A stretch of DNA of 64,000 bases from Chloroflexota bacterium (GCA_016235055.1 JACRMK010000009.1:24435-88434); one strand, 5' to 3'. Shown: positions 1,314 to 27,808, counted from the stretch's first letter. Notes: generated by a model not told the origin, from the sequence alone. A program made the numbers and translations.

Positions 1314-1341
1314 GAGCTAACCACCCACACGAGGCCATACT

Positions 1342-2013: not shown

Positions 2014-2017
2014 GCGT

Positions 2018-2066
2018 TTGTCACATCTGACATTTGTCGCTAAACTGTCTGTGACCGATCGATCAC
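2018..2066 (+). promoter_or_regulatory. Candidate sigma70-type promoter with two palindromic operator-like sites upstream of the effector-like module
   Basis: TTGTCA (2018-2023), 17-nt spacer, TAAACT (2041-2046). Inverted repeat TGTCA-N4-TGACA (2019-2032) overlaps the -35. Near-palindrome GTGACCGATCGATCAC (2051-2066, 14/16 symmetric) lies just downstream of the -10. Located in the 78-nt gap before the ATG at 2091. Confidence 0.35.
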
Positions 2067-2090
2067 CTTGCAGGGGGAGCAGCGTGTTCG

Positions 2091-3668: not shown

Positions 3669-4054
3669 TGAGCGACGACGTGTTGGTCAGCTACACAACA
3701 TATCCGGTCCGAGGACGGTCATCGGCGCTTCGGATCTACGCTGATGGGCGCGTCGAAGATCGAATCGGCGAGCAGGCGTGGAAAGCTGTCACGCGGCTCG
3801 GCCCGCGCCAGATCGCAGACGTGCGCAAGCACCTGCATGCGTCGGGCATCTTTGAGCGCGCGGCGAGCGCCGCAACGCCAGCGGCAACAGCCCACGGCGG
3901 CGTCTGCACCTGGCTGGCGCATGACAACGGGCGACGGGCTGAGGTGACGGTCGAGCCGTGGAACGACGACAATCCCGCGGCCACTCCATTAAGGTTGCTC
4001 GCTTTGCAAATGGATGCAGTGATTGGCGCGGCGCAGGACGGTCGCATCGAGTAG
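3665..4054 (+). CDS. Hypothetical small protein translationally coupled to the zincin gene (candidate inhibitor/immunity or chaperone)
   Basis: GTG 3665 and ATG 3668 overlap the upstream TGA stop (3666-3668). 129 aa with no recognisable motif. Confidence 0.45.
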   Translation: MMSDDVLVSYTTYPVRGRSSALRIYADGRVEDRIGEQAWKAVTRLGPRQIADVRKHLHASGIFERAASAATPAATAHGGVCTWLAHDNGRRAEVTVEPWNDDNPAATPLRLLALQMDAVIGAAQDGRIE

Positions 4055-4110
4055 CAGGCCGATGACGCGAACGCTTGTCCGTTCGCGTGCGGCCAATTCG
4101 GGAGGCCATC

Positions 4111-4833
4111 ATGTCCAACGAATATGATCGAGTGCAGCACGAGCGCGAAGGCGCGCGACAGACCAAACCGGCCGAGTTCCAGGAAGCGCCCGGCGAGACC
4201 GAAGCGGAGGCGATGAGCCGCGCCTTCGTTCAGAACGCGGGCACGCAGCCGGCACAGATTGCCTCGGCGCTGTCGAGCGCCGACGGTTCGATGCGCGCCC
4301 AGGCGCTGAGCCGTCTGCAGCAGGAACGAGGCAATGCATACGTGCAGCGCGTGGTCTCCGAGTCCAAGGGCGCGCCCGGCCGCATGGTCGGCCTGTCGCA
4401 GCCGGACATGGTCGATGAAGTCCTACAGCGCAAAGGCTCCGGCCAGGCGTTGCCCGACACAGCGCGCGCCCCCATGGAGTCGCAATTCGACGCGGATCTG
4501 TCGGACGTGCGGGTGCACACCGATGGCGAGGCCAAGACGCTCAACCGCGAACTCGATGCGCAGGCCTTCACGGTCGGCAAGGACATCTTCTTCTCCGAAG
4601 GCAAATACAACCCGACGAGCAGCGACGGCATGGGCCTGCTGGCCCATGAGATGACGCACGTGGGGCAGCAGGTCGGCTTCGGCGGCGCGGTGCAGCGCGA
4701 GGCGGCTGCGGAGGAGGACGAAGACACGCTCCAGCGCCAGGCCGTGCAGCGAGCGCCCGAAGAAGATGAGATGCCGCCGCGGGCGGCCGCGGAGAACAAG
4801 AAACCAGACGAAGAAGCCGCCGCAGCCACATGA
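4111..4833 (+). CDS. DUF4157 ('eCIS core domain') protein with HExxH motif
   Basis: ESQFDADLSDVRVHTDGEAKTLNRELDAQAFTVGKDIFFSEGKYNP...GLLAHEMTHVGQQ fits the DUF4157 pattern. ATG 4111 is preferred over the ORF-track start 4075 because GGGAGG lies about 6 nt upstream. The N-terminal region carries LQQERGNAYVQRVV. The acidic C-terminus has LQRQAVQR. Confidence 0.75.
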   Translation: MSNEYDRVQHEREGARQTKPAEFQEAPGETEAEAMSRAFVQNAGTQPAQIASALSSADGSMRAQALSRLQQERGNAYVQRVVSESKGAPGRMVGLSQPDMVDEVLQRKGSGQALPDTARAPMESQFDADLSDVRVHTDGEAKTLNRELDAQAFTVGKDIFFSEGKYNPTSSDGMGLLAHEMTHVGQQVGFGGAVQREAAAEEDEDTLQRQAVQRAPEEDEMPPRAAAENKKPDEEAAAAT

Positions 4834-5756
4834 TCAACGACCTGGACGAAACGCTGAAGGCGCTGCTGCTCAAGAAGGCCGCCCTCGACCCGTCCGAAGT
4901 GGATATCAGCTTCGATATCCCGACGCGCGAGTGGTCGACGCCTGTCACGCGCCCGACCGTCAACCTGTACCTGTTCGACATCCGCGAAAACCGGCAGTTG
5001 CGCGAGATGGACTGGGATGTCGAGTCGGGCACCAACGGGCAGGTCACGCGCAAGCGCATTCCGGTGCGTATTGACGTCTCGTACATGATCACCTGCTGGA
5101 CCAGCGCGGCCGAGGACCAGCATCGCCTGCTCTGGCGCGTGCTGGAAACGCTCTTCCGCCACTCGCCGCTGCCGGACGACGTGCTGGTGGGCGACATGCG
5201 CCGATTGCAGCGCCCGGCCCGCACCGAGGTGGCGCAACCCGACGGCATCCTCAAGAACGTATCGGACTTCTGGGGCGCGCTGGAAAACCAGTTGCGCCCG
5301 GCCATCAACCTGGTCGTCACGCTCGAGCTCGACCTGAACCAGGTGACGGTGTCGCCGATGGTCTTCGCGCAGGGCATCAAACTCGGCATGCCGGTCATTC
5401 GCCGCGACAATACCGGTCGCGAATATTACATGTCGGAGTTGCGCCCCGGCTGGGAACTGCTGCCGCTGCGGCTGGCCGGCATTGTGCGCGATCCGAAGGG
5501 ACAGCCTGTGGCCGGAGTCTCCGTGCGCATCGTCGGACAGACGCCGCGCGGCCCGGAGCAGTTCGGGCCCACCGTGGAGACCGACGCCAGCGGTCGCTAT
5601 CTGTTCGGTACGGTGCCGGCCGGCGAATACACGCTCATCGTCGAAGCCGCCGGCCAGGCGCCGAAGAACTACCCCTTTGCTGTGAAGATTGGGGAGCGGG
5701 GACAGATCATGCCCGCCTTCATCCATGAAGTGGAGGTGGCCATGGCCCCATCATGA
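4830..5756 (+). CDS. DUF4255/Pvc16_N-type tail terminator (Afp16/Cis16-like) with C-terminal carboxypeptidase-regulatory-like beta-sandwich
   Basis: ATGA start/stop overlap with the upstream gene (4830-4833). N-terminus MINDLDETLKALLL..VDISFDIPTREW..PTVNLYLFDIRENRQLR. C-terminus GIVRDPKGQPVAGVSVRIVGQ..TDASGRYLFGTVPAGEYTLIV. Confidence 0.8.
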   Translation: MINDLDETLKALLLKKAALDPSEVDISFDIPTREWSTPVTRPTVNLYLFDIRENRQLREMDWDVESGTNGQVTRKRIPVRIDVSYMITCWTSAAEDQHRLLWRVLETLFRHSPLPDDVLVGDMRRLQRPARTEVAQPDGILKNVSDFWGALENQLRPAINLVVTLELDLNQVTVSPMVFAQGIKLGMPVIRRDNTGREYYMSELRPGWELLPLRLAGIVRDPKGQPVAGVSVRIVGQTPRGPEQFGPTVETDASGRYLFGTVPAGEYTLIVEAAGQAPKNYPFAVKIGERGQIMPAFIHEVEVAMAPS

Positions 5757-5827
5757 CCCCGCCACCCTGACCGTGCCGTGACCCAGTACGTAAATCAGAC
5801 CAACCGGAATCCTAAGAAGGAGGATCC

Positions 5828-7438
5828 ATGCCGTTCAACTACAAATCGCCTGGCGTATACGTCGAAGAAGTCGACAAAGGCGCGCGCCCCATCGAGTCGG
5901 CCGGCACATCGGTGCTGGCGCTTGTGGGATTCGTCGCCGATTCGATCAAGGTCGAAAAGCCGGGCCAGGGTACAGTCGTGCAGCCGACGCCGACTGCACC
6001 CACGCTGATTACCAACTGGACCGAATTCACAAACACATACGGTGATTTCGACCAGGCCGTGCCCGGCGGTTATCTGCATCATTCCGTGTTCGGCTATTTC
6101 CTGAATGGCGGCACGGGCATGTTCGTGGTCGGCCTGCCGGTCAAGGGCGCGGGCGGCGCGGTGCCGCAGTTAACGTCCGGCGAGGCGTACCTGTTGAACG
6201 CCGCAGGCCAGCGCCTGCTGCGCGTCGCCACCAGTGGGCCGATGAAGGAAGGTGACAAGATCAGTGTCGAAGCGCAGGCGGCAGCGTCGGATGCGCCAGA
6301 TGGCTCGTTCAACCTCGTCATCACGCGAAGCGGCGCGGCGCCTCAGACGATTGGCAACCTGACGACCGGCAAACCCGCTAAGGGTCAGCGCGCCGTCGCC
6401 GACGCCGTAGCCAAGGACACCGACAACGCGCTGAACGTGGAAATCGTCGAAGGCGCGAGCGGCGTGCCGGCCATCGGCTCGAAAGCAGCGCTGGCTCCGG
6501 CTGCGGCATCGGCCAAGCCGGTCATGGCCGACGCGCTCAAGGCGCAGGGCGCCAACAAGGTGTTCGTTGGCAATGCGGCGCAGCGCACCGGTATCGCCGG
6601 TCTCGAGGCAATCGACGAAGTGACGCTGGTCGCCTGCCCGGACATCATCGCCGCCTTCGAAGCGGGCGCCGCGTCCGAGGACGACGTCAAGGCCGTGCAA
6701 ACCGCCATCCTGAATCACTGCGAGGCGATGAAGGACCGCTTCGCGATTCTGGACATGCCGTCGAAGCTGAACGTGCAGGAAGCGATTGACTGGCGCAAGA
6801 ACCGGATGAATTTCGATTCGAAGTACGGCGCGCTGTATTATCCGTGGATCAAGGTCGCCGGCGCGACGATCCCGTCGAGCGGTTTCGTCGCCGGCGTGTA
6901 TGCGCGCGTGGACGGCGAGCGCGGCGTGCACAAGGCGCCCGCCAACGAAGTGGTGCGCGGCGCGATCGGCCTCGCGAACAACATTTCGCGCAACGAGCAG
7001 GACTTCCTGAACCCGATCGGCGTGAACTGCACTCGGGCATTCCCCGGCCGCGGCATCCGCATCTGGGGCGCGCGCACGCTGTCGAGCGACGCGCAGTGGC
7101 GCTATATCAACGTCCGCCGCCTGTTCGCGAACGTCGAGGAATCGATCCTGCAGGGCACGCAGTGGATCGTCTTCGAGCCGAACGATCAGGTGCTGTGGCG
7201 GCAGATTCGCCGCGACGTGTCGGCGTTCTTGAACGTCGTCTGGCGCAGCGGCGCGCTGTTCGGCGCGACCGCCGAAGAAGCGTTCTACGTCAAGTGCGAT
7301 CTGGAAACCAACCCAAAGGAGCTCCGCGACCTCGGCTATTGTATCGTTGAGGTCGGCATGGCGCCGGTCAAGCCGGCCGAATTTGTCGTCTTCCGCGTCA
7401 GCCAGAAATCCGACGGCGCGGGCTCGGCCAGCGAATAG
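5828..7438 (+). CDS. Contractile tail sheath protein (Cis2/Afp2-like)
   Basis: AAGGAGG RBS. N-terminus MPFNYKSPGVYVEEVD. C-terminal block KYGALYYPWIKV...GVHKAPANE...GVNCTRAFPGRGIRIWGARTL is typical of the phage tail sheath family. Confidence 0.92.
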   Translation: MPFNYKSPGVYVEEVDKGARPIESAGTSVLALVGFVADSIKVEKPGQGTVVQPTPTAPTLITNWTEFTNTYGDFDQAVPGGYLHHSVFGYFLNGGTGMFVVGLPVKGAGGAVPQLTSGEAYLLNAAGQRLLRVATSGPMKEGDKISVEAQAAASDAPDGSFNLVITRSGAAPQTIGNLTTGKPAKGQRAVADAVAKDTDNALNVEIVEGASGVPAIGSKAALAPAAASAKPVMADALKAQGANKVFVGNAAQRTGIAGLEAIDEVTLVACPDIIAAFEAGAASEDDVKAVQTAILNHCEAMKDRFAILDMPSKLNVQEAIDWRKNRMNFDSKYGALYYPWIKVAGATIPSSGFVAGVYARVDGERGVHKAPANEVVRGAIGLANNISRNEQDFLNPIGVNCTRAFPGRGIRIWGARTLSSDAQWRYINVRRLFANVEESILQGTQWIVFEPNDQVLWRQIRRDVSAFLNVVWRSGALFGATAEEAFYVKCDLETNPKELRDLGYCIVEVGMAPVKPAEFVVFRVSQKSDGAGSASE

Positions 7439-7499
7439 TCGCCGCGCAAGCGATTCGGCGCGACCGACCTAACAGCGAACATCACAGGAGGATTTTCCA

Positions 7500-7943
7500 A
7501 TGGCAGGACGCAAAGACCCCTTAATCGCACCACGGTTTGTGGTGAAGTTCGGCGACAAGATGGCGGGCTCGTTCCGCGAGTGCACCGTCGTCTCGGCCGA
7601 GCACGAAGTGGCGGAGTACAAGTTCGCCGACGACAAGGGCAACCCCGGTTACTATGCGGTGCCCGGGCGCATGAAGTTCGGCCGCATCACGCTGAAACGC
7701 GGCCTGACGAACGACATGAGCATGTGGAAATGGCGCAAGATGGTCGAGGACGGCAAGGTGAACGAAGCGCGCACCAACGGCTCGATCCTGATGTGCGACC
7801 AGGACGGTTCGCCGATCGCCGAGTTCAACTTCGAGCAGGCCTGGCCGCTGAAGGTCAGCGGCCCGGCGCCGAACGCGAACTCGAACGAGGTCTCGATGGA
7901 AGAGGTCGAGATCATCTGCGAGCGCGTCTACCGCGCCACGTAG
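7500..7943 (+). CDS. Tail tube protein (T4 gp19-like, Cis1/Afp1-like)
   Basis: AGGAGG RBS. 147 aa. PRFVVKFGDKMAGSFRECTVVSAEHEVAEYK...PGRMKFGRITLKRGL is a T4 gp19/CIS tube pattern. Lies directly after the sheath gene. Confidence 0.85.
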   Translation: MAGRKDPLIAPRFVVKFGDKMAGSFRECTVVSAEHEVAEYKFADDKGNPGYYAVPGRMKFGRITLKRGLTNDMSMWKWRKMVEDGKVNEARTNGSILMCDQDGSPIAEFNFEQAWPLKVSGPAPNANSNEVSMEEVEIICERVYRAT

Positions 7944-7998
7944 GTTCTTGGTTAACCGTTGCGGGGAAGGCGGTCAAGCCGGCCGCCTTCCCCATCCA

Positions 7999-8397
7999 AT
8001 GATGCCGGAGCGCACGATGCCACCAGTCAGCCCGCTGCAGCAGGAATTCGAATTCAGCTTGCCGAAAGGTTACGTGGACGATAACGGCAAGGTCCATAAG
8101 TCCGGCTTGATGCGCCTCTCCACCGCAATGGACGAGATTGCGCCGCTGCGCGACATGCGCGTGCGGAACAACCAGGCGTACCTCACCGTGGCGATCCTGG
8201 CGCGCGTGATCACCCGCCTCGGCGACCTGTCCGAAATCAATACGACGATCATCGAGAAGCTGTTCACCGGCGACTTGGCGTACCTGCAGGATTTCTATCG
8301 CCGGATCAACAGCGACGGCGAGAGCGCCATGAACGTGACGTGCCCGAACTGCGCGCACACGTTCCAGGTGGAGACCAACCCGGCGGGGGGATCGTAG
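7999..8397 (+). CDS. Tail assembly chaperone-like protein (P2 gpE / lambda gpG analog), 0-frame product
   Basis: Occupies the sheath-tube-chaperone position. LPKGYVDDNGKVHKSGLMRLSTAMDEIAPLRDMRVRNNQAYLTVAILARVITRLGDL..IIEKLFTGDLAYLQDFYRRIN resembles gpE-type chaperones. C-terminal CPNC zinc-ribbon-like half site. The start is ambiguous: ATG 7999/8002, or ATG 8017, which has GGAG 6 nt upstream. Confidence 0.6.
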   Translation: MMPERTMPPVSPLQQEFEFSLPKGYVDDNGKVHKSGLMRLSTAMDEIAPLRDMRVRNNQAYLTVAILARVITRLGDLSEINTTIIEKLFTGDLAYLQDFYRRINSDGESAMNVTCPNCAHTFQVETNPAGGS

Positions 8398-15182: not shown

Positions 15183-17234
15183 ATGGCCTTGCCCGTCCCA
15201 AACCTAGACGATCGGAAGTTCCAGGATTTCGTCGATGAAGCCAAGCGGCGTATCCCGCGCTACGCGCCGCAGTGGACCGATCACAACGTCAGCGATCCGG
15301 GCGTCACGCTGATCGAGTTGTTCGCCTGGATGACGGAGCAGATGATCTTCCGGCTCAACCAGGTGCCGGACAAGAACTTCGTCACCTTTCTGGAACTGCT
15401 CGGCGTCGGACTGCAGCCGGCGCAGCCGGCGCGCGGCGATGTCACGTTCATGCTTTCCGCCGCCCCCCGGCCGGACCGCCGCGCTATCATCCCGGCCTGG
15501 ACTGAGACCGCCACGGAACGCACGGAAACACTGGAGGCCGTCGTCTTCACAACCGATACGGATGCCGAGGTGCTGCCCCCGCAAGTGCGCTGGCTGCTGA
15601 CGAGCGCCGACGGCGACGAGTTCCAGGATCAGGCCGCCACGGCGCGCGGCGAAACGGCGCTCGATGTGTGGGCCAACCCGCCGCGTGCGTCCAACGCGAT
15701 GTACCTCGGCTTCGACGCCGATCTGAGCCGTCATGTGCTTGTCCTGCAATTCCAGTGCGACCGGGTGGGCATCGGCATCGATCCCGAGCGCCCGCCGTGG
15801 AAGTGGGAAGTCTGGCGCGGCAACGAGTTCAAGTGGGAAACGGTCGAGGTCGCCTCGGACACGACGCTGGGACTCAACCAGAACGGCGAAGTGCGACTGC
15901 ATCTGCCCTATGCCTGCCAGCCGGCCCGGCCGGACCGCATGCGCGAAGCGCGCACGTGGATTCGCTGCGCACCGCTCGACCAGTTGCCGCCCGGCCGCGC
16001 GCCCTATGCGCGCGCGCCGCGTATCCGCCGCGCGTCGGCGTACACGATCGGCATCACGGTGCCGGTCACGCACGCGCAACCGGTGGGTCCCGAAGTGCTC
16101 GGCTACAGCGCCGGGCAGCCGGCGCAGCGCTTCCGCCTGCAGAATCGCAACATCCTCAAGCCGCAGGGCAGCGATGAGATTGTGGAAGTCGCCGTGACCG
16201 CCAACAACTGGGAGCCGTGGACGATGGTGCCGCACTTCGGCGATTCCGGACCGGAAGACCGGCACTATATGCTCGATTCCATAACGGGCGAGGTCAGCTT
16301 CGGTCCCGCCGTACGCCAGCGCAACGGCGCGGAGCCGCAGTTCGGCGCGATCCCGCCGCAGGCCAGCCAGATTCGTATTCGACGCTACCGCATCGGCGGC
16401 GGCGTGCGCGGCAATGTGGCTGCCGGTCGCGTCAAGGTGCTGAAAACCACGCTCCCCTACGTCGCGTCGGTCACCAACCGTGCCGACATTACCGGCGGCC
16501 TTGAAGCACAGAGCCTCGATGACGCCAAGCTGCGCGCCCCGTCGCTGCTGCGCACCCGCTTCCGCGCGGTCACATCCGAGGACTATGAGTACCTTGCCCG
16601 CGAGGTCGAAGGCGTCGGCCGCGTGCGCTGCCTGCAGCCGCGCCCCGACGATCCCTCGGCGCCGCCGCCCAACACGGTGCAGATCCTCGTCATCCCGGCG
16701 CTGCCGGCGCTGACCGATAGCGAACTGGAGCGACAGATCGAGTTGCATGAGGCGCTGGCGCAGGAGAACCGGCGGGCCGGCATCGAGGGCGTCCTGCAGG
16801 CACAATTACGGCTGACACCGTCCACCGAGTTCCGCCTGCGCGAGTACCTGGACGAGCGGCGTATGTTGACAACGCGCATCCAGATCGGCGAGCCGCAGTA
16901 CGTCTGGGTCACGGTGCAGACCCGCATCCGCGTCGCGCCCAAAGCCGAGCCGGAACGCGTGCGCCGCGACGTGAAGGCGGCGCTCTACCGATTCCTGAAC
17001 CCGATGTATGGCGGCGGCGGTGGCGGCTGGCCCTTCGGCAAACCACTGACGATTGATAAGGTGTATGCGCTGATCCAGGAAGTGCCGGGCGTGGACTACG
17101 CCACGGGCCTCGATCTGTACCCGATCAACCTGACCGATCCGAAGGGCCAGCGACTTGGCAAATCAGAACAGGTCATCAACGTTCCGCCCAACGGCGTGAT
17201 AGTTTCGTACTATCACAACGTCTACTCGGCCTAA
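15183..17234 (+). CDS. Baseplate J-like protein (T4 gp6 / P2 gpJ; Cis11)
   Basis: ATG 15183 has GGAG upstream and follows the gp25 stop. The ORF-track start 15087 overlaps gp25. LDDRKFQDFVDEAKRRIPRYAPQWTDHNVSDPGVTLIELFAWMTE and C-terminal ITGGLEAQSLDDAKLRAP match the Baseplate_J family. Confidence 0.85.
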   Translation: MALPVPNLDDRKFQDFVDEAKRRIPRYAPQWTDHNVSDPGVTLIELFAWMTEQMIFRLNQVPDKNFVTFLELLGVGLQPAQPARGDVTFMLSAAPRPDRRAIIPAWTETATERTETLEAVVFTTDTDAEVLPPQVRWLLTSADGDEFQDQAATARGETALDVWANPPRASNAMYLGFDADLSRHVLVLQFQCDRVGIGIDPERPPWKWEVWRGNEFKWETVEVASDTTLGLNQNGEVRLHLPYACQPARPDRMREARTWIRCAPLDQLPPGRAPYARAPRIRRASAYTIGITVPVTHAQPVGPEVLGYSAGQPAQRFRLQNRNILKPQGSDEIVEVAVTANNWEPWTMVPHFGDSGPEDRHYMLDSITGEVSFGPAVRQRNGAEPQFGAIPPQASQIRIRRYRIGGGVRGNVAAGRVKVLKTTLPYVASVTNRADITGGLEAQSLDDAKLRAPSLLRTRFRAVTSEDYEYLAREVEGVGRVRCLQPRPDDPSAPPPNTVQILVIPALPALTDSELERQIELHEALAQENRRAGIEGVLQAQLRLTPSTEFRLREYLDERRMLTTRIQIGEPQYVWVTVQTRIRVAPKAEPERVRRDVKAALYRFLNPMYGGGGGGWPFGKPLTIDKVYALIQEVPGVDYATGLDLYPINLTDPKGQRLGKSEQVINVPPNGVIVSYYHNVYSA

Positions 17235-17821: not shown

Positions 17822-19936
17822 ATGCCTGATTCAGTGACCCTCAAACTCGACACCGCAGCCGTTCAGGTCAAACCGGGCGCATCGGCCACGGTCCGGCTGA
17901 CCGTCCGCAATCGCACTGAGGAAGTCGGAAACTACACCATCACGATCGAGGGCGTGCCCGCCGGATGGGTATCGGCCTCCCCCGAACAGGTGTCGGCGTT
18001 TCCGATGCAGGACATTCAGGCTGACATTAGCGTGAACCCGCCAGCCGACGCAACCGGCGCCGTGTATCACGTGCAGGTGCGCGCCGCAACGCAAAGCGGA
18101 TCGGGCGGCGTAACGCAACTGGACGTGGACGTGCCGGCGACATTCGTGCCGCCTGCACCGCCGCAGCGATCGGTGCCCCCTCCTCCGCCAACCACCGCGC
18201 CGGAATCGTCGGCGCGGCGCGCGCCGACCGCGTCACCGCCAAAGTCGATGCCCGAGTCCCGTCCGCGGCAGCCATTCACGCCCCCGCCGGCGGCACCGCC
18301 CGCGACCTCGTCGGCGGACAGCAGCGCACAGCGCACGCAGACGGCCGCACAGATTGAAGTCGTCGCCGAGCCAATCAAAGGTGCGCCCCCACCGGCCGTT
18401 CAATGGAAGCTGGCGCTGCACAATGCAGGCACGGTGCTCGATACGTTTGCCTTCAGCATCGCCGGCATCAAACCGGCCTGGGTCAAGTTGCAGCCGGCGC
18501 AGGTCACGCTGAACCCGGATGAGACCGGCAACGCGACATTGACGGTCACACCGCCGCAGGACACGGCGGCCGGTTCGTACCCATTTGTCCTGCGCACATT
18601 CTCTTATCTGAACCTGAACCAGCGCACCGATCTGCCGCTGAAGGTCGACGTCACGACCAGCGCCGGGTTTCAGATGGCGATCGACCCGAAAGATATCGAG
18701 GCGCAGGGACAGCGCGATTTCCGCGTGGTGCTGAGCAGCACGCCGACGAGCAACACGGATTTATGGCTGAACCTGTCGGCCGCCGACCCGGATGGCGCGT
18801 GCGACTATGTGTTCGAGCAAGCGCAGGTGTTCGTGCCGGCCAAGCAAGCCGTGGCGGGCATTTTGCGCGTGCGCCCGCGCGCGGTGCTCAATCCCGGCGA
18901 GCGAAAGATGATCGCCTTCCGTGTCACGGCGACCGAGCGCGACGGCCGCGTGCCGCCGCAAGTCGCCGACGCCCGCCTGACTCAGGTTGGCGCGTCGCCG
19001 CTCCGCGTCGTCCTGCGCCCGCAGGTCAATAGCGCCGAACTGGATGCCAGCTACACCGTGCTGGCCGTCAACCCGTCGGGTGTCGAGACGACGCTGGTCT
19101 TCTCCGGCGAGGATCCGGAACTGGGCTGCGAGTACACGTTCCAGCCGCCGCGCGTGGTGCTGCCGCCAGGCGCAGAGGCACAGGTTACGCTGCGCGCGCG
19201 CGCGCGGGCCAACTTCGAGGGCGAAGGTAGTAAGGAGTATGCGTTCACGGTAAACGCCACGCGCGCCGGTGAACTGGTGCCGGTGGCGACCGCCACGGGC
19301 AAGTTCGTTCAGCAGACGCTCAAGCCGGTCAAGCTGGCGCTGATTCCGGCGCAGATCAGCAGCACCGGCTCGGCGCAGTTCGTCGTGAAAGCCAGTAACC
19401 CGCGCCCAAAGGCGGTCCAGGTCTTGCTGGCGGCGACCGACGAAGCCGACGCGCTGTCGTTCTCGTTCAGCCCGAGCGAGATCAACCTCGCGCCGGGTTC
19501 GGAGGGCAGCGCCACCATCACGGCGAAGCCCAAGGACAGCCTGATGAAGGGCGAGCAACGCCGCGTGCACAAATTCGCGGTGACCGGCACGGTGGAAGGC
19601 GCGGCCGTGCCGCCGGTCGTCAACGGCACGCTTGCGCAGATTCCGGGCGTCGACCTGAGCGGGTTCACCGGCGGCGGCTTTAAGCTCTTCCTTTGGTTCG
19701 CGCGCTGGCTGCTGTTCTTCATCTTCATCTCGTTCCTTGCGACGCTCGTGCTGGCCGGCATCGAAGTGATTGAGAAGCCGCCGGTGCGCAACGAACGCCT
19801 GGTTGCGTTGCTGACTTCGGTGATCAACCCGGCATTTGTCAGAACGCTGATCGAGATCTCGCCGTTTGGCGGCCTGTCGCGCGCCATCGCCGACTTCATG
19901 CGCTATCTCGTCGACCAGGTGTTGTTTCCGCATTAG
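17822..19936 (+). CDS. Tail-anchored membrane protein: five tandem Ig-like (CARDB/NEW3-like by eye) domains, Pro-rich linker, C-terminal TM segment; sits in the fibre position
   Basis: 34-nt gap after the gpI-like gene. No N-terminal signal peptide (MPDSVTLKLDTAAVQVKPGASATVRLTVRN...). About five ~100-aa beta-rich repeats. Hydrophobic FLWFARWLLFFIFISFLATLVLAG near the C-terminus. Architecture is paralogous to 23846..26854. Confidence 0.65.
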   Translation: MPDSVTLKLDTAAVQVKPGASATVRLTVRNRTEEVGNYTITIEGVPAGWVSASPEQVSAFPMQDIQADISVNPPADATGAVYHVQVRAATQSGSGGVTQLDVDVPATFVPPAPPQRSVPPPPPTTAPESSARRAPTASPPKSMPESRPRQPFTPPPAAPPATSSADSSAQRTQTAAQIEVVAEPIKGAPPPAVQWKLALHNAGTVLDTFAFSIAGIKPAWVKLQPAQVTLNPDETGNATLTVTPPQDTAAGSYPFVLRTFSYLNLNQRTDLPLKVDVTTSAGFQMAIDPKDIEAQGQRDFRVVLSSTPTSNTDLWLNLSAADPDGACDYVFEQAQVFVPAKQAVAGILRVRPRAVLNPGERKMIAFRVTATERDGRVPPQVADARLTQVGASPLRVVLRPQVNSAELDASYTVLAVNPSGVETTLVFSGEDPELGCEYTFQPPRVVLPPGAEAQVTLRARARANFEGEGSKEYAFTVNATRAGELVPVATATGKFVQQTLKPVKLALIPAQISSTGSAQFVVKASNPRPKAVQVLLAATDEADALSFSFSPSEINLAPGSEGSATITAKPKDSLMKGEQRRVHKFAVTGTVEGAAVPPVVNGTLAQIPGVDLSGFTGGGFKLFLWFARWLLFFIFISFLATLVLAGIEVIEKPPVRNERLVALLTSVINPAFVRTLIEISPFGGLSRAIADFMRYLVDQVLFPH

Positions 19937-20039
19937 TCACAATTTGATTTGCCGGCACGGCGCCGGACGAGCCTATCGAAGGGCAGTTGCCATGACGGCG
20001 GCCGGATGGATTTCGCGATGACCTGCGGCGTAGGTTCTC

Positions 20040-21326
20040 ATGTTCAACCAACTCGGCACCGCATTGCCTCGCAGCCCAAACATGCGCATGCTCGGCGGCC
20101 TGCTGCTGGCCATCTTCGCCTGCCTGGGCTGCATGCTGGCTTCGTACATAGCCATCGGCCCGCAACCAGCGGCCACGGTCGCGCCGTCGAGCGCGACGCC
20201 GGCCGCCCTGGACAGCGAAACACCGTCGCCCACCAGCACAGACACGCCAGCGCCGACAGCGACGTCGACGCCATCGCCTTCCCCGACGACCACACCGACC
20301 GGGACCCAACCACCGACGGCGACGACCACGGCCACTCCAACCGTCACGCCGACGGCGACCCGCACGCCGACCAGAACGCCGACGAGCACGTGGACGCCGA
20401 CCACCGTGCCCACCGCGTTACCCTACCTGCGCGGTCCGCAGAACCTGGCGGTGTACGCAAAGACGGGCAATGTGTGGGTGACGAACCGGACCGACAACTC
20501 GCTCGCCGAGGTCGATGGCGGCAACGTCTCGCGCGTGCTGACACGGATCGCCAACGTGCCGAGCCCGAACGGTATCGCCATTTATCAGGCGGCCGGCTTG
20601 GCCTACGTAACGAACCGCGATCAATCGACCGTCACGGAGATCGACCTGAATCGAAAGCAGGTGCGGCAGACGTTTGCAGTCGGCAGCCTGCCGTGGGGCA
20701 TCGCCGTGGATGAGAGCCATGGCGCGGTGTATGTCGCCAATTTTGGCTCCAACAGCTACTCGTGCATCCGCCCGGCCACGCGGGACGTGCTGGCGATTGC
20801 CAGCAAGATCACGCAGCCAGCCCATGTGACCTACAACGCGCGGGTCGATGCCATCTACGGTGTCAGCCGCGACGGGCAGGTGGTGCAGTTGACCTGCGGA
20901 AGCAGCCAGATCGTTAAGTCGTTTGCCGATAGCACCCTATTCGACATCGCCTCAAGCGAAAACAGCAACCATGTATTCGTTACCACCAACGGCAGTCAGC
21001 GCGTTCAATGGTTTTTCGTCGGTTCGATGGGGGCCAATAGTTATCCGTTTGCGAACGAACCGTACGCCGTGGAAGCGATCAAGACGTGCGTCGGCGCCGT
21101 CGTGCCGGCCGAAGACAAGCTATACGTGCTCGATCAGTGGCTAAGCGGGGTAGTACGCACGTTCAATCTCGGCAAACAGACGGTGGGCGAAGGCGGCCAG
21201 GGCCTCGCCTACTTTGCGCCGGCCGACACGGTGTACGTGGCCAACTTCGGCGCCAACAGCCTGACGGCGATCAAGAATCCCTGCCCGCCCAATGTCACGC
21301 CGGTCTACGGCACCCCGAAACCGTAG
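20040..21326 (+). CDS. Type II membrane protein: N-terminal TM anchor, Pro/Thr linker, YVTN-family beta-propeller
   Basis: [40 protein letters not shown], then about 80 aa of T/P repeats. Propeller blades carry [31 protein letters not shown] and [15 protein letters not shown] motifs. Confidence 0.7.
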
Positions 21327-21356
21327 AGTTGCTGCACGCGAAATTGACGAGGATCC

Positions 21357-22655
21357 ATGTTCGACCAAATTAGCAACTCGCTGCCCAAAAGCCCGAACAT
21401 GCGCATGCTCGGTGGCTTGCTTATGGCCATCTTCGCATGCATCGTCTGCATGCTGGGATCGTTTCTCGCGCTGGGGCCGCAACCGGCGCCGACTGTGCCC
21501 CCAGCCACCGTGACGCAGTTCGCCGCGGCGGCGGCGACCGAAACGCCGCTACCGACTGACACGCCCATGCCAACGCCGACGTCCACGCCGACCAATACGC
21601 CAACCAATACGCCAACCGGGACGTTGCAGCCCACGCCAACCTTCACGTCGACGCCGACAAACACGCCCACCGCAACACAGACGCCGACGAACACGGCGAC
21701 GCGGACGCCGACCAAAACGCCGACCCAGACGGCCACACCGACCAACACGCCCACCGCGACCCCCTATCTGCGAACGCCGCAGAATATCGCGGTATACGCG
21801 AAAAGCGGCAACGTATGGGTCACAAACCGCATGGACAACTCGGTGGCGGAGGTGGACGGCCGCAACGTGTCGCGCGTGCTGACCCGCATCGCCGACATCC
21901 CCAGCCCGAACGGCATCGCCATCTGGCAGGCGGCCGGGCTGGCATACGTAAGTAACCGCGAGCAGGCGACAGTGACGGAGATTGACCTGAATTCCAAACG
22001 CGTGCGCCGGACCTACGCGGTCGGCGCACTGCCGTGGGGTCTTGCAGTCGACGAAAACAGCGGCGTCGTGTTTGTCGCCAACTTTGGCTCGAATCTGTAC
22101 TCGTGCATTCGGGTCGATACGGGCCAGGTCGCTTCCATCCCGATCGGTTTCGGCCAACCCGCGCACGTGCATTATAATGCGCAGACGGATGCGGTCTACG
22201 GCGTCAGTCGCGACGGGCAGGTGGTGCGCCTGTACTGTGTAGATGGCGGCGGTTCCGATAAGTTCGCCGACGCCAGCCTGTTCGACCTGAGCATGTCCGA
22301 TAATGCGGCTTACGGCTACGTTTCGGCATTGGAGAGCAAACGGGTATACGGGTTTGCGCGCATCGCCGGCCGGAGCTATCCGTTCAGGAACGCGCCGTAT
22401 GGGCTTGAGTACATGGGCCGCTGCGTCGGCGTGATGGTGCCGGCCGAGGATCGTTTGTACGCGCTGGACAACACGCTATCCACGGCCGTACGCTCTTATG
22501 CGGTCGGAAAGCAGTCCGTCGGTGAAGGCGGTCAGGGTATCGCGTACTTTGCGCCGACGGACACCGTATACGTGGCCAACTACGCAGCCAATAGCCTGTC
22601 GGCGATTACGGCGCCATGTCCGGTGTCATTAACGCCAACCTACGTCTTTTACTAG
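21357..22655 (+). CDS. Tandem paralog of 20040..21326 (TM anchor + Pro/Thr linker + YVTN beta-propeller)
   Basis: [40 protein letters not shown]. Same domain order and motifs ([32 protein letters not shown]). 31-nt gap from its paralog. Confidence 0.7.
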
Positions 22656-22706
22656 TTCTGGTGCGCGCCACACGGCGCACCCATCTCGCCGCAAGGATAC
22701 GGTTGC

Positions 22707-23816
22707 ATGGCATCGGTTCTCCTGTCTGCGAATCACGATCGTGTCAGCGTCGCGCCCGGCTCGAGCGTCGAGTTCGTCGTAACCATCCAGAACCTGACGA
22801 CGCTTGTCGATCAGGTGACATTGCGCGTCGAAGGCATCGATAGCCGCTGGGTGCAGATGGTTCCGCCGGTTCTGCCGGTCTTCGCACAAGGCACTGCCTC
22901 GGCACGCGTGATCATCTCGCCACCCGCACACCCGGCCGAGGCGATGGCCGGCAGTTACGGCGTGCAAGTGGCCGGCGTATCGCAGGAACGGCCGGGCGAA
23001 AGCGCCGTGACGAACGTCACGCTCGACGTGCAGTTGGTTGGCGACTATCAGTTGCGTCTCACGACGCCGCAAGCGGGCGACCTGCCGCAGGAGCGGCGTT
23101 ATCCGCTGCGCGTCATCAACGGCGCCAACGCTGTGCTGCTGGTGCACCCGAGCGGCCAGGACCGCAACGGCGATTTCTGGTACAAGTTCGAGCCGTTTCA
23201 GCTTACGGTCCCGCCTGGCGGCGAAGGCACACTCGTCGTCACGGCGCGCGCCAAGCAGATGACCGTCGCCCAGCGCGCGGTCGCCTTCAACGTGGCGACC
23301 ACCGGCACATATACGTTACGCGACGGTAACGCCGTCGACGCGGCGCCGCGCGACGTCGCGGGCCAGTTTGCGCAGGGCGCGCTGGCCACCCTGATCGTCT
23401 CGGTGGCACCGGCCCAAATGCGTGCGCCGCTCACGGGCATATTCCAGGTGCGCGTTGGGAATCCGGGACCGATTCCGGTGAACGCCCGGCTGGCCGTCAG
23501 TGAAGCCGCTGAAGGACTCTCGTTCCGCTTCAATCCGGAGCAGGTCGTGCTGGCGCCGCAGTCCGAGCGCCCCGTGTCGCTGAGCGTACGTGCGGCCGGC
23601 ATGCTGGCCGCCGGCGGCGCAGCGCACAGCTACGATTTTCGGGTTGCGGCCGCCGCGACTGACGGCCTGGCTGAGCCAGGTGCGGCTTCGGCGCAATTCG
23701 TGCAGATTGCGCCAGTCAAGCCGGTACCGTGGGCGCTGATCATCGGCCTGCTCACACTAGCCCTGATTGCATGCTTTGCGTTCGCCATCGTGATTGTCAA
23801 TAACATGCCGCGATAG
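22707..23816 (+). CDS. Tail-anchored membrane protein with three Ig-like domains (short paralog of 17822 and 23846 genes)
   Basis: No signal peptide. The first domain VSVAPGSSVEFVVTIQNLTTLVDQVTLRVEGIDSRWV has the same signature as the larger paralogs. C-terminal TM WALIIGLLTLALIACFAFAIVIV is followed by only NNMPR. Confidence 0.65.
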   Translation: MASVLLSANHDRVSVAPGSSVEFVVTIQNLTTLVDQVTLRVEGIDSRWVQMVPPVLPVFAQGTASARVIISPPAHPAEAMAGSYGVQVAGVSQERPGESAVTNVTLDVQLVGDYQLRLTTPQAGDLPQERRYPLRVINGANAVLLVHPSGQDRNGDFWYKFEPFQLTVPPGGEGTLVVTARAKQMTVAQRAVAFNVATTGTYTLRDGNAVDAAPRDVAGQFAQGALATLIVSVAPAQMRAPLTGIFQVRVGNPGPIPVNARLAVSEAAEGLSFRFNPEQVVLAPQSERPVSLSVRAAGMLAAGGAAHSYDFRVAAAATDGLAEPGAASAQFVQIAPVKPVPWALIIGLLTLALIACFAFAIVIVNNMPR

Positions 23817-23845
23817 CGGATACCCTCCCAAGTTGAGGAAAGTTC

Positions 23846-26800
23846 ATGCCCACTACCGTCGTGACTGTTGATCCGCCCCTCGTCTCCGTGCAGGCAGGCA
23901 GCCAGGCGACTGTACGTGTTGCCGTGGAGAACCGCAGCGATTTTGTCGGCCAGTATCAACTGTCGCTGGCCGGCGCCGATGCCTCGTGGGTCACGTTCGA
24001 GCCGGATCAGGTGGCTGCGTTTCCGGGCAGCACGGCCAACGCCACCATACGCTTGAGTTTGCCCGCCAGCGTCATTCCGGCCACGTACCCGACGGTCGTG
24101 CGCGTGATCAATCAGAGCGACACGTCCGATGAAGCACGCGCGCTGCTGCGCCTCAACGTCACCGCCGCTCCCGGCAGCCAGCCAGGCGGCACGCCAGGTT
24201 TTGTCGCGACGGGCGCAGGCAACCCGCCGCCAACCGGCATGCCCGAGTCGCGCCGGACTGCGCCCCCACCGCCGGTCGCGGCATTCACCGGCGTGCCCGC
24301 CCGGCGCGCGGCCTCGCCGGGTGCCGGCCAGCTCGAATTGTCGATTGACCGCGACAGTATTACCGTCCTGCCCTCCGGCAGCCAGTCGATCAACGTCATC
24401 TGGCGAAACACCGGCGGTACCGCCCTGGCTATCGACGCGGAGCTGCAGGGCCTGCCGCCGGCCTGGATCCGGCTGGAGCCGGCTGCCTTCGATCTGCCAA
24501 AGACGAGCACCGTGCCGGGCCGCGTTACGATCTCACCGCCCTCCGAGGCGCCGACCGGCAGCTACCCGATCACGCTCGTCGGCACCGAGCGCAATACCCC
24601 GGGCATGGCTGCCAACATCGACCTCGTGCTTGAGGTCGGTGAGGCCGGTGGCGTAACGTTGGAAATCGTTCCGCCGCAAGCGGCGGGCCAGGACGGCGCC
24701 ACCTATCGCGTGCGTGCAACGCAGAGCGGCACGACGCCGCTGAATGTGTCGTTCTTTGCCTCCGATCCGGATGCGGCACTCGCATATACATTCAATCCGG
24801 CGACGATCTACGTGCCGCCATCCGGCGACGCAACCAGCGAATTGAGCGTGCGCGCGTCGAAAGGGCTGGTGGGCGTCGAAACGCAGAACTTCCAGTTTAC
24901 TGTCACGGCGACGGCGGCGGAAGGCACGGCCCGCGCCGCGACGGCCTCCGGGCTTTTCGTGCAGCAGCGCACGCCCACGATCGGACTCGTCATCGCCCCG
25001 GCCGAAGTAACCGCGCCCGACAGGGCAACGTACACGATCCGCGTCAAGAATCCGAGCGCCATTCAGACCAATGTGCGGCTCGTGGCCGCCGACGGCAACA
25101 ACGCGTGCCGCTACCTGATCAATCCGCCGGCCGTGGCCGTGCCGGCCGGCGGCGAAGCGCAGGCCAGCCTGCTCGTCACGCCGCAGAAGCTGACGGCCGA
25201 GCCGGGATCGATCATCAACAACTTCACCGTGAGTGCGGAGCCGAGCGGAAGTCTGCTGACCGGCGCGCAGGCCAGCGGGAAGTATGTGCAGACCCAGACC
25301 ATCCTGCCATCCATTCGGCTGGCGCCAGGCAGCCAGTCGTCGACCGGCGCGGCAACGTTTAATGTGCAGGCGACTAACACGCGCCCCACGGCCCTCGATG
25401 TTGAGTTGCGCGCTTTTGATGCCGCCAACCTGGTCGAGCTAAGGCTGAGTACGGCACAGTTGCGGCTGCCGCCGAACGGCTCGGCGCAAGCCAGGGTCAC
25501 AGCGCGCCCAACCACGAAGCTGTTGGCCGGCGAGGCGCGCCGCCCGAACGAGTTTACGGTCGAGCTGCATGTCCCCGGTCTGGAGCAGACCGCGCAGGCC
25601 AAAGGCACGCTCGTGCAGGTCGGCGGGTTCAACTTTGCGCGGCTGATTCCGATCATCCTGCTGCTGGCCGCGCTCGTCGTGTGCGTCGGCGTCGCGGCGC
25701 TCACGCTGCCGACCATTGGCGGCTGGCTATCGGACCGGCAGCGGGAGATCGCAAAGTTTCTGCAGGCGGCGCCCACGCCGCTGCCGCTGGTGACGTTTGC
25801 GCCGTTCACCCCGACGCCGACCATCACGCCGATTCCGACCCCGACGCTGATCCCGGTGCCGTTCGCCATCAAGGGTGTCACGGCGAAAGTGTCGCCAGCG
25901 TCGGCCAATAGCTGCCCCACCACTCTGAGCTTCTCAGCGGAGATCGAAGTTTCACAGGTCGGCAGTATTACGTATGTATGGGAGTTCAGCGACGGATCGA
26001 GCACCACGCCCAGCACCCTGAACTTCGGTGCGGCCGGCAAGCAGACGGTCAACACCTCCAAGTCGTTCAATACCAACGGCGTGGTTGGCGGTCACGTCAA
26101 GATCACCGCGCCGCCATCGCCCGATTCCAACCAGGCATCCGCAACGCTCAACTGTCCGGCCGCCCCCACCGCCGCGCCGGCCGCGCCGACGGCGACGCCG
26201 AAGCCGGCCACCGCGACGCCGATGCCCACACTGCCTCCGGCCATCTTCGTCGCCAACTTCAGCGGTGACTGGACGACGAACTTCGGCAGCATGCATCTTA
26301 ATCAGGGCGGCCCGTCGATCACCGGCACGTATTACAATGGTTTCTTGGGACAGGGCGGCACGATCGCCGGCACAGTGACGGCCAATACGTTTAACGGCAC
26401 CTGGTCGATCTCAGGCGGCACCGGATCGATCCAGTTCAACATGGGCGCCGACGGGGCGTCATTCACGGGTAAGTTCAATGGGACCACCGATTGGTGCGGC
26501 GCAAAGCACACAAGCACCGCCACGCTTCCGCCCGGGTGCGGCTTCTCCGGACCGTGGAGCATTCGCCTGTCGGGCGGCACGCGCACGATGACGCTCGTCC
26601 AACGTGGCGACAACACCGTGAGCGGCACCTATAATAATGGCACCGCGAACGGCACGATAAACGGCACCGTATCGTATCCACCCACCAATGTGGTCCTCAA
26701 CGGCACCTGGACCGTCGGCGGTTCCACAGGTTCGATTCGCTTCTTCCTGAACGACTATAATGCCACCCGATTCCAGGGCAACTACAATACGACCTTCGAG

Positions 26801-26854
26801 TGGTGCGGCTGGCGCGATGGCGGAACGCAGCCAGCACCCTGCCTGCGCAACTAA
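23846..26854 (+). CDS. Bitopic membrane protein: five N-terminal Ig-like domains, central TM helix, Pro/Thr linkers, extracytoplasmic Ig-like domain plus two ~90-aa Gly/Thr/Asn-rich repeat modules
   Basis: No signal peptide (MPTTVVTVDPPLVSVQAGSQATVRVAVENR...). TM LIPIILLLAALVVCVGVAALTL at about aa 595-620. PT linkers. C-terminal duplicated module ...NGTWSISGGTGSIQF...DWCG / ...NGTWTVGGSTGSIRF...EWCG. Confidence 0.65.
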   Translation: MPTTVVTVDPPLVSVQAGSQATVRVAVENRSDFVGQYQLSLAGADASWVTFEPDQVAAFPGSTANATIRLSLPASVIPATYPTVVRVINQSDTSDEARALLRLNVTAAPGSQPGGTPGFVATGAGNPPPTGMPESRRTAPPPPVAAFTGVPARRAASPGAGQLELSIDRDSITVLPSGSQSINVIWRNTGGTALAIDAELQGLPPAWIRLEPAAFDLPKTSTVPGRVTISPPSEAPTGSYPITLVGTERNTPGMAANIDLVLEVGEAGGVTLEIVPPQAAGQDGATYRVRATQSGTTPLNVSFFASDPDAALAYTFNPATIYVPPSGDATSELSVRASKGLVGVETQNFQFTVTATAAEGTARAATASGLFVQQRTPTIGLVIAPAEVTAPDRATYTIRVKNPSAIQTNVRLVAADGNNACRYLINPPAVAVPAGGEAQASLLVTPQKLTAEPGSIINNFTVSAEPSGSLLTGAQASGKYVQTQTILPSIRLAPGSQSSTGAATFNVQATNTRPTALDVELRAFDAANLVELRLSTAQLRLPPNGSAQARVTARPTTKLLAGEARRPNEFTVELHVPGLEQTAQAKGTLVQVGGFNFARLIPIILLLAALVVCVGVAALTLPTIGGWLSDRQREIAKFLQAAPTPLPLVTFAPFTPTPTITPIPTPTLIPVPFAIKGVTAKVSPASANSCPTTLSFSAEIEVSQVGSITYVWEFSDGSSTTPSTLNFGAAGKQTVNTSKSFNTNGVVGGHVKITAPPSPDSNQASATLNCPAAPTAAPAAPTATPKPATATPMPTLPPAIFVANFSGDWTTNFGSMHLNQGGPSITGTYYNGFLGQGGTIAGTVTANTFNGTWSISGGTGSIQFNMGADGASFTGKFNGTTDWCGAKHTSTATLPPGCGFSGPWSIRLSGGTRTMTLVQRGDNTVSGTYNNGTANGTINGTVSYPPTNVVLNGTWTVGGSTGSIRFFLNDYNATRFQGNYNTTFEWCGWRDGGTQPAPCLRN

Positions 26855-26870
26855 CCCGGACAAGCAGGCG

Positions 26871-27790: not shown

Positions 27791-27808
27791 TTTCCGGTCT
27801 GCTGCAAC

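Follow-up and report, generated by a model that had tools for sequence, protein, structure and literature searches.

How a contractile injection system (CIS) that remains in the cytoplasm engages a membrane and is triggered to fire is the question raised by a stretch of 64,000 nucleotides from a Chloroflexota bacterium (GCA_016235055.1 JACRMK010000009.1:24435-88434), which is called the window below and holds a complete CIS operon on the + strand. In phage tails and in extracellular CIS (eCIS), the fibres are encoded directly after the wedge proteins. At this place in the window, five co-oriented + strand genes (17822-26854) lie directly 3' of the gene for the gpI-like baseplate wedge protein, the equivalent of Cis12 (17257-17787, + strand; Pfam Tail_P2_I, E 9.5e-16). 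Three of their products, A704, D369 and E1002, carry arrays of immunoglobulin (Ig)-like domains. From profile comparisons we conclude that these three proteins are enlarged members of the Sco4256-4258 family of Streptomyces coelicolor, and we give an even chance to their being the membrane anchor and trigger of a cytoplasmic CIS.

The coordinates and lengths of the five genes in the first-pass annotation of this DNA proved exact. A704 (17822-19936, 704 residues) is composed of an Ig array and a transmembrane (TM) helix, and it is followed by B428 (20040-21326, 428 residues), with a signal-anchor TM segment and a propeller, and by C432 (21357-22655, 432 residues), a paralogue of B428 with the same layout. 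D369 (22707-23816, 369 residues) joins an Ig array to a tail anchor, and E1002 (23846-26854, 1002 residues) joins an Ig array to a TM helix and outside domains. The gap of 34 nt between gpI and A704 was reproduced, and the internal gaps measure 103, 30, 51 and 29 nt. The 15-bp hairpin reported after the last gene was found as a perfect stem (arms 26871-26885 and 26891-26905), extended by 7 outer pairs (26864-26917, + strand; folding free energy -55.9 kcal/mol, z -4.2 against shuffles). A consensus scan of the + strand from 17.2 to 26.85 kb, which includes the junction between the baseplate genes and position 17822, returned no promoter- or terminator-like site. A transcript boundary inside the module was considered and rejected, because the 103-nt gap between A704 and B428 folds like shuffled sequence; none of the internal gaps folds better than that. 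The data support one unit made up of the five genes and the baseplate genes. A perfect sigma-70 consensus (TTGACA-17-TATAAT, 26965-26993) stands ahead of the next, unrelated gene block, in which Pfam identified a FabD-type acyltransferase (Acyl_transf_1, 27744-28775).

The hydropathy profiles bear out the earlier claims that the three Ig-array proteins lack a signal peptide and that all five proteins are single-pass. In A704, D369 and E1002 the first 40 residues contain no hydrophobic segment (maximal 19-residue Kyte-Doolittle mean 0.41-1.02) and a single strong one lies far towards the C-terminus; in B428 and C432 the only such segment is N-terminal. The Ig-like modules, counted as three to five in the first reading, number five in A704, three in D369 and five in E1002. 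A704 and E1002 were modelled by AlphaFold2 from family alignments. The A704 model (predicted local distance difference test score 82) contains five beta-sandwiches (1-105, 175-278, 283-390, 395-498 and 504-606), a disordered Pro-rich linker (109-174), a TM helix (615-651) and three short helices (658-701), and the part after the TM helix is about 50 residues long and helical. D369 has three Ig modules and a hydrophobic stretch that runs from about residue 334 to the C-terminus, with just 5 residues (NNMPR) beyond the helix, as had been described. E1002 is modelled with an Ig head (1-106), a disordered linker (111-151), four Ig sandwiches (153-592) and a TM helix (597-618), beyond which the model has a Pro/Thr linker, then a PKD-like sandwich (675-768) predicted with confidence, and finally a beta-rich region (773-1002) of low model confidence that contains Cys residues (6 Cys after the TM helix); the C-terminal 230 residues gave only weak GH43_C and PKD profile matches.

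The Pfam and Foldseek searches proposed for the Ig-array proteins returned Ig-type families (FixG_C, NPCBM_assoc/NEW3, fn3_5, Cep192_D3 and ASH) and, as the best structural matches, ASH-type Ig arrays of ciliary central-apparatus proteins, e.g., 7sqc. The opening signature shared by the first modules was confirmed. In part it is common to sandwiches of the NEW3/CARDB type (NPCBM_assoc E 1.7e-10), and profile comparison with hhalign showed that it also marks a conserved head domain common to the wider family. Pfam found no ricin or lectin profile in A704, D369 and E1002, a sequence search with A704 and E1002 against all PDB chains returned no CIS component, and no CIS or fibre structure was among the top 50 Foldseek matches listed.

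The two middle genes have the inverse layout that had been noticed first. B428 and C432 have a 16-residue N-terminus (basic residues R11/R16 in B428 and K11/R16 in C432), one hydrophobic segment (about 14-43; the signal-anchor TM segment of B428 spans about 17-41), a Pro/Thr linker of ~90 residues and a YncE-like propeller matching TIGR02276 beta_rpt_yvtn (E 8e-12) and Pfam NHL (E 4e-12). As read from the sequence, the hydrophobic segment is too long for a cleaved signal peptide and has no AxA-type site. Both proteins have a signal anchor with the N-terminus inside and a YVTN/NHL beta-propeller behind it. The N-terminal motif LPxSPxx[RK] and the TM segment that follows it are conserved in the middle genes of seven loci, and the ectodomains differ among them, including NHL/YVTN propellers, LGFP repeats with CarboxypepD_reg, N_BRCA1_IG and some without profile match. 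We propose that such proteins are the partners of the Ig-array proteins.

The first-pass annotation did not recognise this gene set from described systems, and on this point it has to be revised, since A704, D369 and E1002 are homologous to the published Sco4256-4258 family, for which Roseiflexus homologues were already listed. Sco4256 was found in purified CIS particles of S. coelicolor and was called a 'putative toxin' with a pilus-chaperone-like N-domain and a TM region (Vladimirov et al. 2023, PMC10020575). The same authors related residues 2-215 by HHpred to PapD-type chaperones, Cep192 (7PTB) and FAP47 (7SQC) and residues ~219-255 to TM-type segments; they listed homologues from Roseiflexus castenholzii, Roseiflexus sp. 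RS-1, cyanobacteria and other actinomycetes, rare outside CIS regions, and reported a lectin- or toxin-like C-terminus in one third of the homologues, with C-terminal domains resembling pore-forming or hemolytic lectins in some (PMC10020575). Casu et al. (2023, PMC10066040) described Sco4256, Sco4257 and Sco4258 as paralogues with a highly similar N-terminus, one TM segment and a C-terminal domain, of ricin type in two, and named them 'CIS-associated effectors'. Each was toxic when over-expressed in E. coli, and the triple deletion phenocopied CIS loss in CIS-dependent cell death with particles still assembled (PMC10066040).

The link from the window to Sco4256 runs through intermediates from Kitasatospora and S. 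cattleya and through the published architecture of Sco4256, the C-terminus of which is lectin-like. The A704 family aligned by hhalign with a large family of proteins with two Ig domains, the two-Ig family described below, at a probability of 99.9% (E 1e-33), with the A704 head on the first domain and the third sandwich of A704 on the second. The Kitasatospora protein WP_331730337, of 476 residues, with two Ig domains, a TM segment at 215-249 and a C-terminal domain, was matched by the two-Ig family (probability 99.3%, E 3e-20) and also by the A704 family (probability 96.7%, E 4e-10). On the Kitasatospora plasmid (locus L095, 33036-36506), gpI is followed in the same operon by a CisA-like gene, whose product has zinc ribbons and a NADase-type discoidin domain, and then by a Sco4256-like gene. 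WP_331730337 also matched an open reading frame (ORF) of S. cattleya pSCATT that lies close to its CIS genes (E 8e-49). This ORF is presumably AEW99800.1, the pSCATT protein listed as a Sco4256 homologue by Vladimirov et al. (Data 4, PMC10020575). BLASTP of D369 against the Kitasatospora protein was not significant, and the relation is visible to hidden Markov model and other profile methods only. The organisation of a Deinococcus grandis plasmid locus differs.

The CIS itself has the same affinities. The sheath matched the solved structure 8bky best, with 9gtp as a further entry (E 1.7e-139, full length), and it is 44-49% identical over its full length to Streptomyces, Kitasatospora and Deinococcus plasmid sheaths, the best plasmid tblastn matches. 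The sole solved-structure match of gpI is 9gtp_E from the S. coelicolor CIS baseplate (E 2.6e-19). The 138 close relatives of gpI in its clade all come from metagenomes or from metagenome-assembled genomes (MAGs) of Chloroflexota/Anaerolineae, and each of three divergent gpI relatives that were re-inspected has Ig-TM genes immediately after it. Gaisin et al. assigned the CIS of Chloroflexota and Deinococcota to lineage IId and found the particles of Roseiflexus to be intracellular and free-floating (PMC12998442). By these matches the CIS of the window is placed in the Streptomyces-like lineage (IId), for which cytoplasmic particles are documented.

A704, D369 and E1002 have PapD/ASH/Cep192-like Ig N-domains without a signal peptide, a single TM segment directly after the Ig region and a location inside what the best sheath, gpI and plasmid matches indicate to be a lineage IId CIS cluster. 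Because this architecture agrees with that of Sco4256-4258, and because the profile links lead through the two-Ig family, Kitasatospora and pSCATT to the published proteins, the three are best classed as enlarged members of that family. Both sets are confined to lineage IId CIS clusters and come as several paralogues per cluster, three in S. coelicolor and three here; no other Ig-TM family member is present in the 64 kb of the window. There are differences as well: two Ig domains in Sco4256-4258 against five, three and five here, with a linker after the head in A704 and E1002; a tail-anchored D369 without an outside domain, and no ricin or lectin domain detected; and genes placed directly after gpI together with partners of the B428/C432 type, whereas the S. 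coelicolor genes lie elsewhere in their cluster. The family and its association with CIS, including its presence in Chloroflexi, are already published. No mention was found in the literature of arrays of three to five domains, of a tail-anchored member, of the A-(partners)-D-E order or of exchangeable partners. It appears, then, that the enlarged arrays, the tail-anchored D369, the partner proteins with a conserved N-terminus and TM segment and swappable ectodomains, and the invariable A-(partners)-D-E order at the fibre position in a CisA-less lineage are undescribed.

Is the module tied to the CIS, or does it merely adjoin it? Relatives of A704, searched in 5.8 billion clustered proteins, are rare: the 17 strong ones (P0002-P0018, of which two are fragments) align over 62-100% of the query at 42-69% identity and derive without exception from metagenomes or Chloroflexi MAGs. 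A scan of 185,579 species, each represented by one genome, gave three loci, all in Chloroflexi/Anaerolineae MAGs, with patterns too narrow for absence elsewhere to be read from it. The gene-neighbourhood survey proposed in the first-pass annotation found A704, D369 and E1002 together with gpJ/gpI in every informative locus. In nine of the nine distinct loci with upstream DNA, gpJ and gpI lie directly upstream of the A704 orthologue, and D- and then E-like genes follow in all eight loci with downstream DNA. The common order in all readable loci is gp25, gpJ, gpI, A-like, variable middle, D-like and E-like; the minimal form A-D-E occurs in locus L005. The genes beyond E1002 change from locus to locus, and the synteny is retained at 42-57% protein identity despite these differing flanks. 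D369 orthologues of 362-373 residues, all ending at the TM helix, are present in L001, L003, L004, L005, L010, L014, L015 and L083. The E1002 orthologue closes the module in every case; what follows its TM helix varies, and in four loci head and linker are missing.

With the A704-family profile, an exhaustive HMMER search returned 149 cluster representatives at E <= 1e-30 and 1,415 at E <= 1e-10. In 129 of the best 149, the N-terminus lacks a hydrophobic segment and a TM segment comes later; 5 have a signal-like N-terminus and the rest are mostly fragments. Their sub-families are A-, D- and E-like proteins, the large two-Ig group (two Ig domains, TM segment at ~222-250, variable C-terminus, N-terminus MSALIRV...) and fusions with kinase, FHA or zinc-ribbon domains. 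A survey of metagenome contigs of the Joint Genome Institute with the two-Ig profile gave 79 loci, in which linkage was scored where at least 7 kb lay upstream; a word-indexed protein search with the same profile returned only 14 short metagenomic proteins, none from a named organism. Close two-Ig relatives (>= 37% identity) stand behind gpJ/gpI in 9 of 10 cases, as one to six tandem copies, and distant ones in 6 of 19. The expected co-occurrence with CIS genes therefore holds for the A704, D369 and E1002 orthologues and for the close two-Ig relatives and does not hold for the distant ones. Because of this difference, the Ig-array-plus-TM proteins are to be regarded as a broader class of cytoplasmic-side membrane proteins, in which sub-families including those of A704, D369 and E1002 are tied to CIS baseplate genes.

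Several further observations were made on these relatives. Distant members in L071, L073, L076, L082, L088, L090 and L094 (24-29% identity, 520-557 residues, N-terminus MSFTVQL...) share a non-CIS context, in which the match (at ~10001 in most) is directly followed by a purH-like gene and, at a greater distance downstream, by a small gene and mreB/mreC/mreD-like genes, labels that were taken from N-terminal sequences only. In a sub-group of the CIS loci, a DUF4159-like gene of ~385-410 residues lies between gpI and the Ig-TM genes; it was confirmed by Pfam in L006 (2535-3689) and L046 (5908-7071) and has a similar N-terminal sequence KDIIKFQLKRVNPF... in L052 (8733-9956), L058 (8721-9944), L063 (8356-9582) and L069 (7118-8278). 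In L035 (3416-14630), six tandem paralogues with two to four Ig domains plus TM follow gpI, some of them with several TM segments. The weak match P0020 belongs to a MoxR/DUF58 cluster and was dismissed as a generic protein with Ig repeats.

A Ser/Thr kinase plus an FHA domain, an FHA domain by itself or a zinc ribbon precedes the Ig array in three sets of relatives (P0172, P0183, P0191, P0205, P0206, P0221, P0233, P0253, P0266 and P0268; P0210 and P0227; P0230 and P0257). In these relatives, found at E <= 1e-30 with the A704-family profile, the first TM segment comes only after the Ig array, and they make up a class of cytoplasmic signalling proteins that use this Ig module and are tethered to the membrane. 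Such fusions suggest the Ig array as a cytoplasmic signalling scaffold and, together with the strict linkage to baseplate genes and the free-floating particles of related organisms, they could speak for a membrane-side regulator or assembly platform, which would, e.g., hold or nucleate baseplates or keep particles inactive, the propellers having an unrelated envelope function. We regard this as improbable: Streptomyces mutants without the family still assemble particles, and the conservation of the N-terminus and TM segment of B428/C432-type proteins across loci argues for their membership of the module.

The next question is on which side of the membrane the arrays lie. Large N-terminal domains that lack a signal are not carried across the membrane. 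That the arrays of A704, D369 and E1002 are cytoplasmic (N-in/C-out), with the propellers and the C-terminal part of E1002 outside, was the simplest topology in the first-pass annotation, and it is supported by several lines. The three proteins have no signal peptide and D369 is tail-anchored, which argues for arrays inside. So does the distribution of Cys, which is scarce before the TM helices of A704, D369 and E1002 (3 in 1,549 residues) and present after those of B428, C432 and E1002 (14 in 1,160 residues, in the even numbers 4, 4 and 6). In the relatives with the order Pkinase-FHA-Ig array-TM, no TM segment precedes the array, so the kinase and FHA domains, which must be cytoplasmic, are on the same side as the Ig domains. 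The best structural neighbours are not surface adhesins but the ASH-type arrays, which sit inside the cilium, and they point the same way. Pmt-type O-mannosylation acts on the outward face of the membrane. Consistent with arrays inside, SCO4256 was found in the membrane fraction of S. coelicolor with a trihexose O-glycan on Ser317, C-terminal to its TM segment (PMC6593405). The positive-inside rule was set aside as topology evidence because the charges flanking the TM helices of A704 and E1002 are mixed.

These results bear on the reading of the five proteins as ordinary fibres or adhesins that a released eCIS carries outside the cell, or as an unrelated surface-protein cluster that happens to adjoin the operon. 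The genes do stand where fibres are normally encoded, and surface proteins often contain Ig-like repeats and propellers. Against this, the array proteins have no signal peptides, their TM helices are conserved, D369 is tail-anchored, the kinase-FHA fusions put this type of Ig domain in the cytoplasm, and no similarity to solved fibre proteins was detected; the synteny, moreover, is kept at 42-57% protein identity between differing flanks. We consider either version very improbable.

What, then, could cytoplasmic Ig arrays in the fibre position do? Two non-canonical CIS are known to have a membrane-anchored protein in this position, Cis13 in Anabaena (PMC8894136) and CisA in Streptomyces (PMC12237407). 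Roseiflexus has no close cisA homologues, and its membrane mechanism was left open and may differ (2026 Roseiflexus study); a phmmer search of all window ORFs with the Kitasatospora CisA-like protein gave no CisA homologue at E <= 0.1. In the model that we infer, A704, D369 and E1002 would act as inverted fibres. The conserved N-terminal Ig head would attach peripherally to the baseplate wedge (gpI/gpJ). From there a flexible linker and the Ig rod would bridge the distance to the membrane, and the TM helices would keep the particle tethered at the inside of the cytoplasmic membrane. The parts beyond the TM helices would lie outside, which is nothing in D369, a small helical tail in A704, and the PKD-like and beta-rich modules in E1002. 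B428 and C432 would enter the complex by way of the conserved stub at their N-terminus and their TM segment, and would supply exchangeable outside domains for binding or sensing something in the envelope or the surroundings of the cell. Docking, or a signal passed through the complex, would then permit contraction of the sheath against the producer's own membrane. Because this lineage has no CisA homologue, the module may take over the role of CisA.

The head is proposed to bind the wedge periphery because of the fibre position, the conservation of the head and the gpI of locus L006. The conserved head, the varying distal parts and the position directly after gpI make up a fibre-like pattern. 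The gpI of the distant locus L006 (1459-2532) has, besides Tail_P2_I (residues 180-347), an N-terminal extension of ~170 residues, of which residues 97-152 match the head-domain profile (E 2e-12 against this single protein); a 60-residue ORF lies upstream, and a frameshift may obscure the true start. gpI is a likely docking partner of the Ig heads. To the linkage, homology and architecture described above, the literature adds, for the Sco4256-4258 homologues, membrane location, an outside C-terminal part, co-purification with particles and a need for them in CIS-dependent death (PMC10020575, PMC10066040, PMC6593405).

The comparison with the two membrane-anchored proteins and with fibres shows where the proposal has precedents. 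CisA (Sco4242) is encoded directly after the wedge genes, just as A704 starts 34 nt after gpI, and it is bitopic, N-in/C-out, with a sugar-binding-type outside domain, a topology that the proteins of the window are predicted to share. It is required for firing of the S. coelicolor CIS and was proposed to link particle and membrane through Cis11 (PMC12237407). In sequence CisA is unrelated to A704-E1002; it carries zinc ribbons, an acidic and unstructured region at the N-terminus and a NADase-type discoidin domain, and Pfam and NCBIfam found no CisA-type domain in the five module proteins. The Kitasatospora plasmid shows that CisA-like and Sco4256-like genes can coexist in the fibre position. 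Cis13 (All3316) of the thylakoid CIS of Anabaena is also encoded in the fibre position and has a C-terminal TM helix. Its N-terminus binds the baseplate and its TM helix anchors the particle to the internal membrane face, and deletion of the TM helix frees the particles (PMC8894136). It differs in being a short trimeric helical protein directed to the thylakoid membrane, and no sequence or fold similarity was found (7B5H/7B5I). Fibres of the Afp13/Pvc13 type with eBAP domains share the gene position downstream of Tail_P2_I/Afp11-12 homologues (PMC12923769), a conserved N-terminal attachment, a variable distal part and several fibre genes per locus. Unlike the module proteins, they are soluble and trimeric, act outside the cell on released particles and have no TM helix and no such Ig array. 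In the Pfam, PDB and Foldseek comparisons, the module proteins matched no fibre-related family and no solved fibre structure.

The published proposal is that the family consists of CIS effectors, i.e., membrane-targeting toxic proteins that load or associate through the conserved N-domain and damage the envelope on firing. Particles of the triple mutant have a mostly empty lumen, the mutant behaves like a CIS-less strain, each protein is toxic in E. coli, some homologues end in pore-forming or hemolytic lectin-like domains, and polymorphic toxins, too, combine a conserved N-terminus with variable C-termini. These points are opposed by the finding that SCO4256 is a resident O-glycosylated membrane protein of growing cells rather than a cargo stored in the cytoplasm. 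D369 and its orthologues consist of nothing but Ig modules and the TM tail, with no conceivable toxic domain, and the rigid arrays of ~600 residues with structured N-termini in A704 and E1002 would be hard to fit into the tube lumen. Over-expression of TM proteins harms E. coli non-specifically, and full-length CisA is toxic as well without being regarded as an effector. The operon also has other candidate cargo in its eCIS_core/DUF4157 proteins, and both the place of the genes behind gpI and the gpI-head fusion speak for a structural role. On balance, a role as effectors is unlikely for A704, D369 and E1002 but is the main alternative to the membrane anchor and trigger.

Some observations weigh against the membrane anchor and trigger and must be set beside the evidence for it. 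The tubes of the sco4256-4258 mutant were ~85% empty, as compared to ~97% filled tubes in the wild type (PMC10066040), and it was from the empty lumens and the toxicity in E. coli that Casu et al. read the effector behaviour (PMC10066040). This empty-lumen phenotype favours effectors and cannot be explained away. By cryo-electron tomography, particles in Streptomyces, Roseiflexus and Deinococcota were mostly free-floating and undocked (PMC12998442, PMC10066040), and the solved baseplate of the S. coelicolor CIS has no fibre-like density. The family genes of S. coelicolor and pSCATT lie outside the fibre position, and the argument from position is therefore limited to some lineages. The more distant members of the family occupy non-CIS contexts, the topology is read from hydropathy and indirect arguments, and the binding of Ig heads to gpI/gpJ is likewise something that we infer. 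Extending the membrane anchor and trigger to the whole family, so that the Sco4256-type 'effectors' of lineage IId CIS in general would be membrane adaptors, or inverted tail fibres, with the baseplate-binding Ig head inside and receptor-binding-type domains outside, and would in this Chloroflexota/Anaerolineae lineage couple an extracellular or envelope cue to firing together with exchangeable propeller, LGFP or Ig ectodomain partners, is a tentative step that we would sooner expect to fail than to hold.

The upstream part of the CIS operon (84..17234) lies wholly on the + strand, and its components were called by Pfam. It begins with an AAA ATPase (84-1313) and includes a CxxCxxCC protein (within 84..17234). 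Early in the operon, a protein of 525 residues (2091-3668) with an OmpA-family domain (residues 335-388) has a C-terminal HExxH-type motif, HETGHMFGLGDEY, and may be a cargo or an envelope-acting protein. The first of two eCIS_core/DUF4157 proteins (4075-4833) is followed by the Pvc16_N cap protein (4830-5756), the sheath (5828-7438), a first gp19-type tube protein (7500-7943), a second one (8862-9305) and the second eCIS_core/DUF4157 protein (716 residues, 9334-11484). The CIS_tube+LysM protein (12003-12947), the VgrG-like spike (12960-14747), gp25 (14765-15166) and gpJ lead to gpI; the gpJ ORF is listed from 15087 and ends at 17234, so that it overlaps gp25, and its true start is probably later. 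Only 17 nt separate VgrG from gp25 (14747-14765), and the gene of 89-101 residues found there in L001, L002, L004, L005 and L015, annotated PAAR_motif in L002, is absent. Between a 149-residue gene and the second tube gene (8340-8859) lie two small ORFs. The first has the position of the DUF6760 gene in related loci, and the end of the second (8587-8859) resembles the C-terminus of the 716-residue eCIS_core protein (DRVYELMRRDL... vs QDVYELLKTRL...).

Our analysis does not reveal a new kind of system; it supplies concrete candidates, and arguments, on how cytoplasmic CIS contact the membrane and are triggered there. The fibre position, the tail-anchored member, the gpI-head fusion and the glycosylation site are reasons to re-examine Sco4256-4258 as structural adaptors. 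Should the family consist of effectors, the module would be an ordinary lineage-specific expansion of a known family. If the adaptor role is true, swappable ectodomains on a conserved N-terminus and TM segment would be a new way to diversify the input side of a contractile machine.

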